Below the pieces are notes generated by a model, which saw only the letters and a list, made by a program, of their open reading frames with translations, was not told the DNA's origin and did not search any database. From a virus (taxonomy: Duplodnaviria; Heunggongvirae; Uroviricota; Caudoviricetes), in IMG/VR virus record IMGVR_UViG_651053023_000020: a stretch of DNA of 35,277 nucleotides. One strand, given 5' to 3'. Positions 27,647 to 35,277 of this stretch are shown here, piece after piece. The first letter of the stretch is position 1. Every line of letters begins with the position of its first letter. The position numbers and the translations under genes were made by a program.

Positions 27647-27755
27647 TTACGGGATTCTGAAATCCCGTTTTTGCCTGTTTTGTGCGCGCTTCATATATCG
27701 CTGCGCGTTTTTTGCTCATTTACGGGATTCGTGAGTCCCGTTTCTGTCTGTTTTT
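27647..27755. repeat. two about 36-bp direct repeats each containing a hairpin (candidate parC-like centromere/operator)
   Basis: ttacgggattctgaaatcccgtttttgcctgtttt (27647-27682) and ttacgggattcgtgagtcccgtttctgtctgtttt (27719-27755); second copy overlaps the 3' end of gene A. Confidence 0.5.
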
Positions 27756-30512
27756 GTTTCCGCTGGTCAGGCCACCCCGCAGCAGGTCTGCTTTGCGGCG
27801 GGCGCGTTCAGTGGTTTCACTGATTCTCTGTGCGTGCTCTGCGTCGCGGATGGCGCGCAGCATGTCAGAAAGCACGGTAACGGGTGTTTTCATGGTGTTC
27901 TGGTCCTGCTGAAGTGTGGATGCCAGGCGTGCGGCGGCTTCAGGGTCTGATGCCCCCAGCTGTGCCAGATAGCTGGCGGCCGGGTTATGGCGGATCTCCG
28001 TGCTGCTTACGCCGTGATTACGGCTCAGGCGCTGCCAGAGCTGCGTGATTCGGCTGTCCGGGCGGGTATCCGGTTTGCGTACAATTTCAAATCCCTGCGG
28101 TGCAATGATGCTGCCGTCAACGTACAGACTGCCGCCCCGTAACAGGTGCTGCATCTGTTGTTCACCGATATGCAGGCCGAGAGATTCAGCAGACTCCCGC
28201 CATTCTTTAGCGAGTAACTCGTGGTTATCAGGCAAAGGCCGCTGCTGTTTGCGGCTCTGTGTCCAGTTCTGCATTTCATCGCTGCTGTTTTTTGCCTGTT
28301 TGTCACGAAGCGAACGCATCAGCGCCCGGCGTTCGTGCCGTTTCAGTGAGCGCATCCATTCATTTACTTCAACGCCGTCAGGAAGCTGCGGCCACGGTGC
28401 TGGCCGTTCTTCCGGCTGTTCTGTCCCGTTGTTGCCTGTTTCCTGTACACGGGGACAGTTATTGCCACGAGTCCAAGGGGCGGTAGGGCCGCCCTGAAGG
28501 TCAAAACCATTTTCGCGGGCGCTGTCTTCCGCTTCCGGTTTACGTCTTACCAGCTTCCAGTTATCCGGGTGCGTGCACACGCGGGAAGACTCCCCGATGA
28601 GCGGCGACCAGATCCCGTAAATCTGTACACTCTGCTCGCCGTAATCGTTCAGCTCATCTGCGAGGTCGTAGGCGGTGCGAATCAGGTAGTCTTTACGTGG
28701 AACAAGTACGCCGCCCTGTTTTTCAATGTAGGAGGCAAAACACCCGGCATCAGCGGCAGCGAGTACCGCATCCATTGCATCATCCTTCAGCCGTTGCGGG
28801 CCTTCCGGGTTGCGTGCCATCTGGCTGGCAAGGCGGCGGAGTTCACGCCATACCTGACGGGAGGGGATGCCAAAGAACTGGAACTGGCGGACCCGATGAA
28901 GACGCGCCCAGCCAATGGCGCGCTCCACGCTCTCGGCCATTGATTTTCCGGTTTCGTGGTCAACGCGTGGCTTGCCCGTTTTCGGGTCGATGCCATCTAC
29001 GGCGCGGCTGTCCAGGTTTTTTCCGATGTAGGTCGCGATATAGCTGGTTGGTGTGCCTTTTGAGCCGTCGACATACTCCGCCTTAAAGCGCGGAGTAATA
29101 TCATCGCCCAGTTCGTGACGATCTTCCTGAATGGCAATATCGCGGGTGATGGCCACGATGCTGTCGATTTCTTCCGGATGAGCAAAGACCATCATATGCC
29201 AGTGCACGGTGCCGTCATGGTGAGGCTCCACCGTGCGGATGCCATACCAGCGCAGGCCGTCGCGGTTCAGTTTTTTGCGGACCGCCGCAAAAAACGTGTT
29301 AACCAGGTAATCGCTGGAGTCGCGCATGGTGGCCCCGTTCCATTTGGGGTTCGGATGACCGTTCTCCGTTGTTGCGTGGTATTTTGACGGGCAGGTGACA
29401 GTCAGAAACACCGCTTTGTCACCACGGGCTTCGGCCAGAAGTTCCAGCCCCTTCATGGTGGCCATCATTTCTGCCTTACGGTGAACCGGGTTACTTACTC
29501 CCGCGTAATACACTGTCTCGAGATCAATCGTGAACCCGTCTTCATTTTCCAGCATGAAACTTTTCAGGAAATCGCGTGTTTTCTCGCGCTGTGCGCGAAA
29601 CTCGCTTAACGCGTCCTGGCTCAGATAGGGCGATGTTTTTCTGGAAACCAGACAGGCGGCGCGGAGTTGTTCTTCTCTCCACTCGCAACGTAACAGCCAC
29701 AGTTTGCGTTTCCACCATTCTGCACAGGTCAGGCGAAGGATTGCGCCCGGCAGCAGCTCCGTGTCCGGTTCGTTCCTCCGGTCTTTGTCTGTTGTCAGTG
29801 CGTCATAATGTGGAGGCATGGCGTGCAGGTGTAACGCCATGCGGGCCAGCATCTGATACGCCTTCAGCGTTACATCCATGGTCAGTTCGCCATCGGTCGC
29901 GCCAAAGCCATCGCAGAGTTTTTCGAAGGTGCTGCTGAACATCGCCGCCGTCATGGTGGCCAGTGTCTGTATCTGGTGTTTGTTGAGCTGCGGCAGGTAA
30001 AGCAAATCGTCCAGGCGTTCGCGTCCGGCAAGGGAGCGATAACCCTGTGTCAGCCAGCGGTGATCGGTGCGCTCCAGACGTTCGAATATTTTGCGCAGGT
30101 TTCCGCGCGCGTAGCGTTCAGCCTGCCAGCTCTTTTTGCCTTTCTGACGATCGGCTTCCTGTTTTTTGCGCAGGAAGGAGAGGTGGCGAATAAGCGGATC
30201 GCGCAGATAGGACGGCAGCAGGCGCAGCGAGGCCATGGCTTCATCCACCGCGCCGCGTGCCTGTTTTCTGGCATCTCCTGCCAGTGTGATGGTTTTGTCC
30301 TGTTTTTCCTGTGCGTCCAGGCTTTTATTAATCAGGTTGCCCAGCGGCGTTGCGGAGAACGCCGCATCAGCCATTTCCTGGCGGCGCTCGTTCTCTACCC
30401 GGTAGGCATCCAGCCAGGAGGAAAGCGCGGATTCAGGAGCGGGGATCCCCGTTCCTTCACGCCCCACTGCGTGGCGCGGTTGTTGCCAGTCCCTGATGTA
30501 CTCTGCCGTCAT
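27720..30512 (-). CDS. A: replication initiation protein gpA (rolling-circle endonuclease)
   Basis: 930-aa ORF with HUH-like GTVHWHMMVF and YIATYIGKN motifs; noticeably longer than the P2 A length I recall. Confidence 0.85.
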   Translation of the reverse strand: MTAEYIRDWQQPRHAVGREGTGIPAPESALSSWLDAYRVENERRQEMADAAFSATPLGNLINKSLDAQEKQDKTITLAGDARKQARGAVDEAMASLRLLPSYLRDPLIRHLSFLRKKQEADRQKGKKSWQAERYARGNLRKIFERLERTDHRWLTQGYRSLAGRERLDDLLYLPQLNKHQIQTLATMTAAMFSSTFEKLCDGFGATDGELTMDVTLKAYQMLARMALHLHAMPPHYDALTTDKDRRNEPDTELLPGAILRLTCAEWWKRKLWLLRCEWREEQLRAACLVSRKTSPYLSQDALSEFRAQREKTRDFLKSFMLENEDGFTIDLETVYYAGVSNPVHRKAEMMATMKGLELLAEARGDKAVFLTVTCPSKYHATTENGHPNPKWNGATMRDSSDYLVNTFFAAVRKKLNRDGLRWYGIRTVEPHHDGTVHWHMMVFAHPEEIDSIVAITRDIAIQEDRHELGDDITPRFKAEYVDGSKGTPTSYIATYIGKNLDSRAVDGIDPKTGKPRVDHETGKSMAESVERAIGWARLHRVRQFQFFGIPSRQVWRELRRLASQMARNPEGPQRLKDDAMDAVLAAADAGCFASYIEKQGGVLVPRKDYLIRTAYDLADELNDYGEQSVQIYGIWSPLIGESSRVCTHPDNWKLVRRKPEAEDSARENGFDLQGGPTAPWTRGNNCPRVQETGNNGTEQPEERPAPWPQLPDGVEVNEWMRSLKRHERRALMRSLRDKQAKNSSDEMQNWTQSRKQQRPLPDNHELLAKEWRESAESLGLHIGEQQMQHLLRGGSLYVDGSIIAPQGFEIVRKPDTRPDSRITQLWQRLSRNHGVSSTEIRHNPAASYLAQLGASDPEAAARLASTLQQDQNTMKTPVTVLSDMLRAIRDAEHAQRISETTERARRKADLLRGGLTSGNKNRQKRDSRIP

Positions 30513-30518
30513 AGTGAT

Positions 30519-30884
30519 TTACTTCGTCATGCCATTCAGGGTGTCGCGGCAGACTGTAGCCAGCCGCTGAATTTCCAGCACGGTGTCTTCTGTGTCGGCA
30601 TGGCGATGTGTGATGCGGATGCTGTCGGCAATCACATCGACGATTGCAGAGGATGGGCGCTGGTAAATGCCAATAACGGACGGGGTGCCACCTTCAATGC
30701 GGTAAAGCCTGTAATTTCCCTCGTGGCTGTCAATCATGTAACGACCATCAATAACAATCTTTCCGTCAGCGAGCTGCGGTACAGGCAGGGATTTCAGGTA
30801 CATGTCATAACGATCACGCACGCGAGCGGCAAGATCACGCTCTGTGTTGAGCAGGTATTCAAGAAAGTCGTTGGCGAGAATCAT
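30519..30884 (-). CDS. hypothetical early protein
   Basis: 121-aa ORF directly upstream of A on the same strand. Confidence 0.5.
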   Translation of the reverse strand: MILANDFLEYLLNTERDLAARVRDRYDMYLKSLPVPQLADGKIVIDGRYMIDSHEGNYRLYRIEGGTPSVIGIYQRPSSAIVDVIADSIRITHRHADTEDTVLEIQRLATVCRDTLNGMTK

Positions 30885-30956
30885 TGCGGCAATCCTCTTG
30901 TTACAGATGTGCGAAGGCCTCCCGCCGCAAGGTGCAGGAAAGGCCCGGAACAGGAA

Positions 30957-31187
30957 TTAATGGAGTTTGTTTTGCTGCTGGATGAGATCCTGAAGAGACA
31001 GGAGGTCTTCCGCCAGATAGCTGAATACAGCGGCGCAGTAGTCGGCTGAAATAGTGCTGTTGAGTCTGTGCAATGTGTTGGATTGCATGATAAAGGCGAT
31101 GTGTGCAGCGCGGGTGAGTCTGCGATCGATTTCAGTCTGGATGTGACGACGCTCCGCGATAGTGCGGTGCTGTTTGCGGTTTGCCAT
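30957..31187 (-). CDS. hypothetical small early protein
   Basis: 76-aa ORF with AAGAGG SD. Confidence 0.45.
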   Translation of the reverse strand: MANRKQHRTIAERRHIQTEIDRRLTRAAHIAFIMQSNTLHRLNSTISADYCAAVFSYLAEDLLSLQDLIQQQNKLH

Positions 31188-31368
31188 GGTGTTTGGCCTC
31201 TTCGTTTGTGAGTTTTTGGATACTCACCAACCAGAGTTGAGAATCTCGGGGTGGCGAGACGTACGGGGTTCTCAACACCGGCAAACGAAGAAACCGGCCC
31301 GACCGAAGTCGGCCCCGTACGCCCCACCATAATTCTGATGCGAAAAAGACGTGGCAATACAGTACGCA

Positions 31369-31389
31369 CAAAAAAACCGCTGGCGCGGT
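31369..31389 (-). terminator. intrinsic terminator-like hairpin inside early operon
   Basis: Minus strand reads AACCGC-GCCA-GCGGTT followed by TTTTTTT. Confidence 0.5.
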
Positions 31390-31512
31390 TGTGCGCTTCG
31401 TTTGTCAGCAGGTTGAGAATCCCGGCACCCGTTTTATGAGGTGCAGCGGAAATGTAACCTGACTGATTGCGGTATGGCAAGCGGTTTTTTTGTGTGTGCA
31501 TGTTCTGGTTTC

Positions 31513-33381: not shown

Positions 33382-33636
33382 TTATGCTGCTTTACCGCTG
33401 ATATTTCTGTTTCGTCTGCCACTTGTTGGCTTAAACAAAAACAGACGGTTTTCCCAGTCGTGCCATTCCTGAGGTGCGTTTTCGATGAGGCGATCGCATG
33501 CTTCATCCCACGCTTTTCTGTTGATGTAGAGTTCAGCGTTTCCGCCTGGCTTGAGAGGGTCCGCCATATACACCGCAGGTAGCTTTCCTGCTTTTGCCAT
33601 GCTTACGATGGCATCAACGGTCTTTCCGATATACAT
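33382..33636 (-). CDS. cox: Cox-like excisionase / early repressor
   Basis: GKTVDAIVSMAKAGKLPAV...W pattern resembles P2 Cox HTH region; start placed at ATG 33636 with AAGGA SD rather than track's 33807. Confidence 0.7.
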   Translation of the reverse strand: MYIGKTVDAIVSMAKAGKLPAVYMADPLKPGGNAELYINRKAWDEACDRLIENAPQEWHDWENRLFLFKPTSGRRNRNISGKAA

Positions 33637-33915
33637 CGCAAATCCTTCTTTTGACAGGAGATGCGAGGGATTTTCTGAAAGTCGAATTTCTTCACGTTCA
33701 CGTGCTTTGCGTCCTGTTTTTTGATGCTCACCTTCTGGCATTTCTGACAGGTGATCGCATCGTGTTCCGCAAAGTGACTCAGGCGCGTTTTGAGTGCTTT
33801 CTTGCATCTGATATCCTCCGCTATTGGTGCTTTCTTCTAACTAGCACCATTTAGAACTAGTTAGCGCAATTCGTTGTGTGTTAATTGATGTATAAACTAA
33901 GTGAGTTAACTTACT
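33637..33915. promoter_or_regulatory. immunity switch region (expected face-to-face Pe/Pc promoters) with dyad repeat CTAACTAG...CTAGTTAG at 33837-33865
   Basis: Intergenic region between divergently oriented cox and C; operator-like inverted and direct TAG-containing repeats; promoter positions not determined. Confidence 0.4.
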
Positions 33916-34215
33916 ATGTCAACTACCGTAGCTATGAAAATTCGCATCATGCGGAAGTCAGAAATGCTTACACAAGAAAAAATGGCAGAGATTACTGGGC
34001 TTACTCTTGCTGCATTAAGGCAATATGAGCAAGGACGAAATGAACCCAACCTTGAGTCAACAAAAAAGCTTCTGAAAGCCCCCATGTTCCGTAAGTACCG
34101 CGACTGGTTTTTGTTTGATGAAGTTGAACCCAAGGCCGGGCAGGTTGTACCGGCTCTCGCACACATTGGGCAAGGCGAAGCGGAATCATCCCGCTCCGGC
34201 AAGAAAACTGGTTAA
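33916..34215 (+). CDS. C: immunity repressor C (P2 C-type, 99 aa)
   Basis: Length and sequence (..K..LMRKSE.L......A..TG........YE.GR..P.......L..P.F.KY..WF.........GQ..PALAH.GQ.E..S..SG.KTG) match P2 C as recalled. Confidence 0.85.
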   Translation: MSTTVAMKIRIMRKSEMLTQEKMAEITGLTLAALRQYEQGRNEPNLESTKKLLKAPMFRKYRDWFLFDEVEPKAGQVVPALAHIGQGEAESSRSGKKTG

Positions 34216-34281
34216 CGGTTCACCAGGCATTTATTTCCCAGAGCTGTGATCAAGATGATGTTTTCATTGGAGGGCTTCCTT

Positions 34282-35277
34282 ATGTCGATTAAGAAGCTCG
34301 CTAATGGCAAATTTTGTGTGGACGTGCGGCCAGCTGGATCAGAAGGAAAGAGATTCAGGCGGCGATTTGATACTCGTGGTGAGGCTGTTTTGTATGAGCG
34401 TCATGTATTGCAGCATTACCACGACAAAGATTGGGTTGATAAGCCAACAGAACGGCGCTCGCTGAGGGAGTTGCTGGATTGTTGGTGGCTATACCACGGG
34501 AAAAATCATCCTTACGGTGCGATGGAGCGAGTGCGTATTTCTGCGGTCATTAGTGATCTTGAAAGTATTAATGTTACACGCAGTGACCAACTTACTCGTA
34601 AGAACATAATTAATTATCGGTTATTGTTGCTTAATCGCGGAATAAAACAATCCACGGTTAATCGTTATTGCGCAATGATGAGTGGTTTCTTCACAAAACT
34701 AATTGACGCAGAGGAATATTCTGGGGCTAATCCGTTTCATGATGTGAAAAAACTTAATATCAAACAGCCTGAAATGGCTTATTTGTATCATGAAGATATT
34801 CCACGATTACTGGAGTTGTTATCTGGTGATGAATTAAAAGCCGTCTTGTTGTGTCTGGCAACAGGTGGAAGATGGAGTGAGGTTGCAAATATCAAGGGGG
34901 AGCATGTTATTAGCGGCAAAGTCATTTTTATGGAAACCAAAAATGGGAAGCGTCGCGTTATACCTATATCGTCAGAACTGGAGTGCATGATTAAAACAAA
35001 GGCCACTGGTCGTTTAATTTATCCAAGTTATGCAGCTGTCAGAGCTGCTATCAGAAAGGTGAGGCCTGATCTTCCTGAAGGGCAGTCGATACATGTTTTA
35101 CGGCATACCTTTGCCACTCACTTCATGATTAATGGTGGGAATATCATCACTTTGCAGAGAATACTTGGACATAGCACTATTCAGCAGACGATGACTTATG
35201 CCCATTTTGCACCGGATTATCTACAGGATGCTGTGCGCTTTAATCCTGTGGCTGAGTTGTCCAGATATTGCCCATAA
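34282..35277 (+). CDS. int: tyrosine integrase (P2 Int family)
   Basis: C-terminal HxLRHTFATHF...GHS...MTYAHFAPDYL catalytic region; start at ATG 34282 with GGAGGG SD; stop is last codon of window. Confidence 0.9.
   Translation: MSIKKLANGKFCVDVRPAGSEGKRFRRRFDTRGEAVLYERHVLQHYHDKDWVDKPTERRSLRELLDCWWLYHGKNHPYGAMERVRISAVISDLESINVTRSDQLTRKNIINYRLLLLNRGIKQSTVNRYCAMMSGFFTKLIDAEEYSGANPFHDVKKLNIKQPEMAYLYHEDIPRLLELLSGDELKAVLLCLATGGRWSEVANIKGEHVISGKVIFMETKNGKRRVIPISSELECMIKTKATGRLIYPSYAAVRAAIRKVRPDLPEGQSIHVLRHTFATHFMINGGNIITLQRILGHSTIQQTMTYAHFAPDYLQDAVRFNPVAELSRYCP

Follow-up and report, generated by a model that had tools for sequence, protein, structure and literature searches.

A probable C4/CI-type RNA immunity cassette ahead of an epsilon-like gene in the early operon of a P88-like prophage

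The DNA considered here is a stretch of 35,277 nucleotides (nt) from a tailed virus (Caudoviricetes; IMG/VR record IMGVR_UViG_651053023_000020), called the window below, and our subject is the gap at positions 31,188 to 31,512 between two early open reading frames (ORFs) on its minus strand. The 35-kb window is a complete P88-like prophage of the genus Xuanwuvirus in the family Peduoviridae (the P2 family). We consider it very probable that the gap is an RNA immunity cassette of the C4 (P1/P7) or CI (P4) type, situated in the early operon, and that it gates orf76, the gene immediately downstream. This view is directly supported by matches to two RNA families, by the predicted fold, by a three-way complementarity and its co-variation among relatives, by the overlap of one pairing site with a ribosome-binding site and by the homology of orf76 to the P4 gene epsilon. 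An earlier sequence-only reading had described the gap as a structured non-coding element with a three-fold GTTGAGAAYC motif, and it had proposed a regulated terminator, a small RNA or a regulator-binding array. The small RNA and the terminator were borne out; the binding array was not.

The gap holds two RNA genes rather than one, an IsrK-like RNA and a C4-like RNA, and both match curated Rfam models over their full length and on the strand of the early operon. The C4 antisense RNA model (RF01695) scores 79.2 bits against a gathering score of 45 (E 4e-14), and the isrK model (RF01394) scores 62.0 bits against a gathering score of 50 (E 4e-11). The mature C4 RNA is predicted to extend from about 31328 to 31250. 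Its minimum-free-energy fold (-48.6 kcal/mol, z -4.67; none of 200 shuffled sequences folded as well) is a cloverleaf that agrees with the Rfam consensus, with a long closing stem (31328..31313 with 31268..31250), two internal hairpins (hairpin 1 at 31312..31299 and hairpin 2 at 31298..31277) and a single-stranded junction. The complementary pair ACGTACGGGG / CCCCGTACG that had been noticed at the outset is indeed present and belongs to a 17-nt inverted repeat, 31252-31268 / 31313-31329, which is the closing stem of the C4 RNA. The IsrK-like RNA, which is of the P4 SeqA leader type, consists of a 5' hairpin, two target sites and a Rho-independent terminator; the latter is the minus-strand hairpin with a U-run reported earlier, now placed at 31390..31370. 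All of the pieces described in that reading exist, although each lies one base higher than it had put them. No tRNA or tmRNA was found.

A promoter scan predicts a sigma-70 promoter, PisrK, whose -10 element ends 7 nt ahead of the start of the isrK match. PisrK is conserved in the 21 representative P88-like sequences that were aligned, as is the terminator-like hairpin of IsrK, and it aligns with the P4 region upstream of the P4 isrK match. PisrK would be the counterpart of PLE in P4 and of P1c4 in P1.

As had been claimed, the 35-kb window has exactly three copies of GTTGAGAAYC, namely 31236-31245 (+), 31267-31276 (-) and 31412-31421 (+); shuffled sequences led us to expect 0.12 copies, and none of 100 shuffles reached three. 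A second three-fold motif had been overlooked, namely CTTCGTTTG / CAAACGAAG at 31200-31208 (+), 31282-31290 (-) and 31396-31404 (+). Using the P1 nomenclature, as in the annotated P1 record, we refer to the six sites as a1, b1, a', b', a2 and b2 (Table 1), and the three GTTGAGAAYC copies are the a2, a' and a1 pairing sites. In the C4 RNA, the b' segment CUUCGUUUG is exposed in the 12-nt loop UUUCUUCGUUUG of hairpin 2, and the a' segment GUUGAGAA is in the single-stranded junction that connects hairpin 2 with the closing stem. Downstream, the a2 site UUCUCAAC begins 7 nt past the closing stem and forms 8 base pairs with a', and the b2 site CAAACGAAGAGG forms 10 Watson-Crick and two G-U pairs with the b' loop. 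The b2 site covers the Shine-Dalgarno sequence of orf76 (AAGAGG, 31202..31197), 9 nt ahead of the ATG at 31187. Upstream, a1 and b1 in the IsrK-like RNA are complements of a' and of the b' loop, respectively, and a1 is in the loop region of the second IsrK hairpin. The repeats are RNA-RNA pairing sites, found on a ribosome-binding site and, within a conserved RNA fold, in a loop and a junction.

Phage P88 offers a test of the pairing model. The integrase, C, Cox, orf116, orf92 and orf81a proteins of P88 are 100% identical to those of the window, the orf67 and MarR proteins are 98-99% identical, and the DNA surrounding the cassette is almost the same, yet all six sites differ in a compensatory manner; the a sites are UUUCCACC in P88 where the window has UUCUCAAC, and the b sites are CAACUACAG where the window has CAAACGAAG. 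This pattern extends to the 81 P88-like loci that we collected from viral contigs. They have 21 site combinations, made up of 13 b' types and seven a' types; each b' type is matched by its own b1 and b2, and each a' type by its own a1 and a2. Sequence differences cluster at the six sites, the DNA around them hardly varies, and the repeats are conserved in these relatives as a co-varying system.

Pair counts were made on the 21 distinct sequences. Between C4 and the downstream a2/b2 sites, 93.3% of the cells were paired, with 75 cells changed on both sides; between C4 and the upstream a1/b1 sites the values were 94.1% and 76 cells. In the controls, about 69% were paired in shuffles and 22-53% when the partner was slid, and the shuffles had 20.8 +/- 3 cells changed on both sides, with none of 500 as high as observed. 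The b'/b1 helix was 98.9% paired, with seven of its nine pairs changed on both sides, and the b'/b2 helix was 96.8% paired, with six of nine such pairs. Chance is therefore excluded as an explanation, the pair counts and double changes being far above those of the shuffles. A core pattern picked out 117 C4 loci in viral contigs, with more than 30 specificities, and most of them obey the same pairing rule; in these loci b2 mostly ends in a Shine-Dalgarno sequence.

Two of the P88-like contigs carry natural recombinants. In L137, b' (CUGUAGUUG) mismatches its own b1 and b2 (CAACCAAAG), and in L146, a1 (UUCUCACC) mismatches a' (UGUGGAAA). The cassettes of these two may be partly derepressed.

The gene behind b2, orf76, encodes a protein of 76 amino acids (aa) that is predicted from sequence comparison to be a distant homologue of the P4 anti-repressor epsilon, the helper derepression protein. 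BLASTP aligns it to epsilon with 30% identity over 66 aa (E 4e-9), and hhalign relates the orf76 family to epsilon with a probability of 93.5% (E 2.3e-7). Most relatives of orf76 match the epsilon family PF25738 and have the NCBI name 'derepression protein'. No solved structure was found for the orf76 family. Similarity to P1 Icd was also considered for orf76, and there is none.

The gene is dimorphic among near-identical prophages, with classes of at least 93% and about 68-70% identity that diverge at residues ~25-65 and share both termini. A link between the orf76 alleles and the C4 type was considered and rejected because the two are independent; for example, locus L123 has an identical orf76 and a different code.

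We infer transcription, processing, repression, polarity and the function of orf76 by analogy with the P1/P7, P4 and Gifsy-1 systems, and the cassette might work as follows. The internal promoter PisrK would produce a 75-nt IsrK (SeqA-type) leader RNA, which would stop at its own terminator (31370). Transcripts that read through would carry C4, which RNase P would cut out of the precursor. The released RNA would adopt the tRNA-like cloverleaf, with b' (hairpin loop) and a' (junction) exposed, and it would pair with a2 and b2 just downstream and so mask the Shine-Dalgarno sequence of orf76. The epsilon homologue would then be left untranslated and the untranslated message would probably terminate early, with less expression of orf121 and gene A from PisrK; orf121 is probably co-regulated by polarity. 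The a1 and b1 sites in IsrK could serve as an upstream target or decoy, and their pairing with C4 would set the level of C4 itself, either through the IsrK terminator, as at P4 t1, or by titration of C4. The P4 terminator t1 is reportedly regulated by an antisense RNA. The a and b sequences would constitute a hypervariable specificity code. Where two phages have the same C and different codes, as this prophage and P88 do, neither would repress the cassette of the other.

Beyond the cassette itself, we would suggest only tentatively that P88-like phages have a second, RNA-encoded layer of immunity with a combinatorial 'barcode', that this layer gates an epsilon-like anti-repressor and, by polarity, gene A, and that phages with the same C would be heteroimmune in the manner of P1 and P7.

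Table 1. Features of the prophage early region, in window coordinates
Feature	Position	Strand	Remarks
Integrase	34246-35277	+	
C repressor	33916-34215	+	
cox	33807..33382	-	
Upstream arm ACACACAAAAAAACCGCUUGC	31477..31497	-	19/21 complementary to terminator 3' half and U-run (31384..31364)
PisrK, predicted sigma-70 promoter	31451..31480	-	-35 TTGCCA 31480..31475; spacer 18 nt; -10 TACATT 31456..31451
IsrK / P4 SeqA-type leader RNA	31370..31444	-	Rfam RF01394, full length (1-77)
a1 target UUCUCAAC	31412..31419	-	complement of C4 a'
b1 target CAAACGAAG	31396..31404	-	complement of C4 b' loop
IsrK terminator	stem 31390..31375; U-run 31376..31370	-	terminator scan
C4 / P4-CI-type antisense RNA	31247..31334	-	Rfam RF01695, full length (model 1-87 of 87)
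b' recognition segment CUUCGUUUG	31282..31290	-	loop of hairpin 2
a' recognition segment GUUGAGAA	31269..31276	-	single-stranded junction
a2 target UUCUCAAC	31236..31243	-	pairs with a'
b2 target CAAACGAAGAGG	31197..31208	-	pairs with b' loop
orf76, presumed first regulated gene	30957..31187	-	76 aa; predicted P4 epsilon homologue
orf121	30519..30884	-	immediately upstream of gene A; position is that of P2 Orf83 (DUF5405)
Gene A, rolling-circle replication endonuclease	27720..30512	-	Pfam Phage_GPA, E 3e-131

Several observations weigh against a cassette that controls orf76 in the way just described. The Rfam model for the c4-a1b1 RNA (RF03163) has no match at E <= 10 between 30900 and 31800; this model does match P1 (51 bits) and P4 (44 bits), and the a1/b1 content is nevertheless present in the window. 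The match of orf76 to PF25738 (22.7 bits) is below the gathering score of 27. We considered whether orf76 might be the specific anti-repressor of its own C, and this was dropped because its alleles show no co-variation with the C classes across about 60 loci, where C proteins at 100%, ~72% and 30-41% identity accompany either allele class; the phage's own repressor is therefore at most a candidate target. Downstream of the window's C4 there is neither an icd or ant homologue as in P1 nor a kil-like ORF at b2 as in P4, and therefore the output of the switch may differ from both models. Finally, the cassette is located within an operon that C already represses, and its contribution in a lysogen hinges on the predicted internal promoter.

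Some of these points bear on the question of what the cassette is for. The same RNAs might mainly serve to control replication, as in P4, and not an anti-repressor: pairing of C4 with a1/b1 and a2/b2 would cause premature termination and thereby silence gene A and orf121 in the lysogen and in superinfecting genomes, and orf76 would merely be the first short stretch to be translated, by which translation is coupled to termination. The order IsrK, C4, epsilon-like gene, small ORF and replication gene mirrors that of P4, the downstream operon ends in the replication gene alpha in most of the sampled C4 loci, only 6 nt separate orf121 from gene A, and the orf76 alleles do not track the class of the C repressor. 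The early operons of P2 and 186 also have internal terminators, which are annotated as anti-terminated in 186. However, b2 lies exactly on the orf76 Shine-Dalgarno sequence, as in P1, so the first effect would be translational; a terminator scan found no terminator-like site on the minus strand from C4 to gene A; and gene A must also be expressed from the main early promoter in lytic growth. The P4-like and the P1-like (anti-repressor) readings are both compatible with the data, and we regard replication control as the main job as possible, though somewhat doubtful. The published Gifsy-1 model would turn the roles around. In that case the short IsrK would act in trans on the read-through mRNA, open an inhibitory fold and activate the downstream ORF, and processed C4 would not be a repressor. 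In the minimum-free-energy fold of the 271-nt precursor, the a1/b1 region of IsrK does pair in cis with the a'/b' region of C4, which resembles 'structure A' of Hershko-Shalev et al. (PMC4825925), and in Gifsy-1 the supply of IsrK in trans increased translation downstream by more than 100-fold (PMC4825925). But the window's IsrK has the same sequence as the mRNA target (a1 = a2 and b1 = b2), not its complement; consequently, it cannot pair with the ribosome-binding-site region and can only compete for C4. Titration of a C4-like segment by IsrK would explain the Gifsy-1 data equally well, and Hershko-Shalev et al. likewise mention a processed RNA, STnc1160, which they compare with P4 CI (PMC4825925). 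We think it unlikely that the Gifsy-1 model applies here.

The regulator-binding array of the sequence-only reading would make the repeats operators for a phage or host DNA-binding protein, with the complementarity a mere effect of one copy being inverted. An operator array is in principle conceivable for two direct copies and one inverted copy, and a MarR-type regulator is encoded two genes upstream of the cassette. However, all of the copies are changed in P88 while the candidate DNA-binding proteins of the early region remain 98-100% identical, the 13 by 7 specificity types are accompanied by no co-varying protein (the orf76 alleles, too, being independent of site type), and the sites coincide with a loop and a junction in a high-scoring RNA fold and with a Shine-Dalgarno sequence. 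In addition, the homologous sites of P1 and P4 are experimentally established RNA targets and are recorded as such in the P1 annotation. Since no protein changes along with the sites, we exclude a DNA operator array with very little reservation. Even less credible is a protein-coding region, either the 206-aa ORF (31501..30881) or the 'Ash family' protein of RefSeq. The 206-aa ORF matches Pfam Phage_ASH at 21.2 bits, under the gathering score of 26, and PGAP labels the same stretch in a related prophage an 'ash family protein' pseudogene. Against this, the ORF and orf76 overlap in different frames, insertions or deletions of 1 and 2 nt occur inside it in relatives, the variation is limited to six short RNA-complementary sites with no codon-like spread, and the P4 member of the Ash model is an obsolete ORF, the 'cI protein', which overlies the CI RNA. 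The earlier judgment that this ORF is not a gene was therefore sound, and no conserved protein gene emerged in the gap. The 206-, 79-, 62- and 56-aa ORFs were all set aside as genes, having just the sub-threshold Phage_ASH match, which the RNA genes explain.

The resemblance to P4 is extensive. The C4 model scores 74.9 bits on the P4 CI RNA and the isrK model 60.8 bits on the P4 leader. Both elements have a constitutive-type promoter (a predicted one in the window), a leader that contains the first target and a Rho-independent terminator, the C4/CI RNA and a second target on a ribosome-binding site; behind these come an epsilon-family gene, a small ORF and, last, the replication gene, and the strand logic is the same. 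In P4, the CI RNA is followed by kil, epsilon, two small ORFs and alpha. The window differs in that it is a complete P2-type helper phage with its own C/Cox switch, not a satellite, and its cassette is internal to a longer operon. It has no kil/icd-like ORF of about 65 codons, so that the epsilon-like gene is directly on b2, and its replication gene is a P2 A-type nickase (Phage_GPA) with no match to the alpha primase. The orf121 product was compared with P4 orf151 and is unrelated to it.

The window shares with the immI region of P1 and P7 the C4 fold, the a1b1-c4-a2b2 layout, the location of a' in the junction and of b' in the loop of hairpin 2, an a2 site right after C4 and a b2 site on the ribosome-binding site of the first ORF (icd in P1). 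A second immunity layer beside a protein repressor and specificity differences between otherwise homoimmune phages would be further likenesses to P1/P7. However, the genes downstream of the window's C4 are not icd or ant (there are no Ant1 or KilA matches), no C1-type operator is known at the window's promoter, and the upstream RNA of the window matches isrK above threshold and not c4-a1b1, the reverse of P1. The 17 nt that cover the 5' flank of C4 and the start of its closing stem, GAATTATGGTGGGGCGT, are identical in the window (31319-31335, minus strand) and in P1 (L203, 3337-3353), which suggests that this flank is a conserved processing determinant. A LexA box near this flank was considered and dropped since, judged by eye, CTGTATTGCCACGTCT lacks a CAG half-site.

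The IsrK of Gifsy-1 has been called a structural homologue of the P4 SeqA RNA (Hershko-Shalev et al. 2016, PMC4825925), and the processed RNA STnc1160 has been reported downstream of it (PMC4825925). As is predicted for the window, an RNA of the IsrK family has its own promoter and a leaky terminator, with a read-through mRNA that is translationally silent (PMC4825925); the middle of IsrK pairs with about 30 nt of downstream sequence (PMC4825925), which corresponds to the pairing of a1/b1 with a'/b' in the window's predicted precursor; and the downstream gene encodes an anti-repressor-type protein. Gifsy-1 differs in being lambdoid, with AnrP and then AntQ as the output of the isrK-orf45-anrP locus (PMC4825925), and in that IsrK is a trans-activator in the published model, where the C4-like stretch is regarded as a coding sequence, 'orf45' (PMC4825925).

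The window has the switch itself (C or cI, with Cox or Apl) in common with P2 and 186, and also a small ORF of the DUF5405 type ahead of gene A and internal terminators (in the window, a predicted one) in the early operon. Neither the P2 nor the 186 early region has a C4 or isrK match at E <= 0.01. The 186 anti-repressor, Tum, is controlled through LexA; the P2 region that we examined has no annotated anti-repressor.

The C4 loci that we sampled come mostly from P4-like satellites, and eight of the 117 have a P88-like context. The region was matched in 1298 of 5426 complete E. coli genomes. In public records the RNA genes are either unannotated or appear as a hypothetical protein or as an 'ash family protein' pseudogene. 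Pfam PF10554 (Phage_ASH) scores 59.7 bits on the obsolete P4 'cI protein' ORF over the CI RNA, and the family would seem to be conserved RNA genes in translation. Catalogues of P4-like satellites have relied on PF10554 to mark epsilon (PMC8628076); the true epsilon is PF25738, not PF10554. The RefSeq 'ash family protein' pseudogene is the isrK-C4 stretch of a related prophage, and the corresponding places are 31241-31456 (minus strand) in the window, 1214-1474 in L204 and 8168-8584 in P4 (L122).

The type of system is already known and is detected by existing Rfam models. The literature that we searched yielded no description of C4 in P88-like or P2-type helper phages. The module of RNA immunity and epsilon known from the satellite P4 is present in a P2-type helper phage as well. 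The gene delta has been stated to be the sole P4-specific gene with clear homologues in P2-like phages (PMC8628076), and the epsilon-like orf76 family would be a second candidate. Near-isogenic prophages that differ almost solely at six co-varying sites also amount to a ready-made compensatory-mutation experiment on the specificity of an antisense RNA, and from the combinatorial RNA code one would expect phages with one and the same C repressor to be heteroimmune, as P1 and P7 are. If an RNA barcode layer of immunity does exist, C alone would not suffice to define the immunity groups of P2-like phages. P4-like satellites employ this RNA system too, and it is therefore also conceivable that the cassette was exchanged between helpers and satellites or is a field of conflict between them. 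A search for helper-satellite cross-talk found that none of 924 pairs (the P88-like types against 44 other types, mostly P4-like) match at both a and b.

A 21-nt inverted repeat (19/21), 31477-31497 / 31364-31384, flanks the isrK gene, and the fold of 31500..31364 that includes it has a free energy of -56.5 kcal/mol (z -7.1). The core of the upstream arm is kept in all of the roughly 80 P88-like loci examined, with single-base variants in two. The other C4 classes lack the repeat and have just an A-tract, and so it was rejected as a family-wide feature and is confined to the P88-like class. Judging from the predicted fold, the upstream arm may be an antiterminator for transcripts from the early promoter, which would allow promoter-specific read-through, or merely an A-tract UP element. 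A second promoter-like site, TTGCCA-17-AATTAT (31357..31329), was judged to be a chance match or part of the processing site, and probably no real promoter, because its -10 element overlaps the 5' flank of C4 and its start would fall inside the closing stem.

The early operon itself runs on the minus strand from cox down to the replication gene A. The orf121 product belongs to PHROG 3237 (E 3e-55), a function-unknown family, and its DUF5405 match is weak; the DUF5405 protein adjoins gene A in P2 and is encoded two genes upstream of gene A in 186. Gene A, which begins 6 nt past orf121, is the last gene in the unit behind the cassette. Its product, at 930 aa, is clearly longer than the P2 and 186 counterparts (genes of 2286 and 2085 bp, respectively), and the Phage_GPA domain spans only residues 179-503. 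Directly upstream of the cassette (~31498-31512) there is an insertion hot spot, with at least 22 different flanks among the 81 loci; in P88 (L001, 3850-4990), it is occupied by genes for a membrane protein and an SPFH/lipoprotein.

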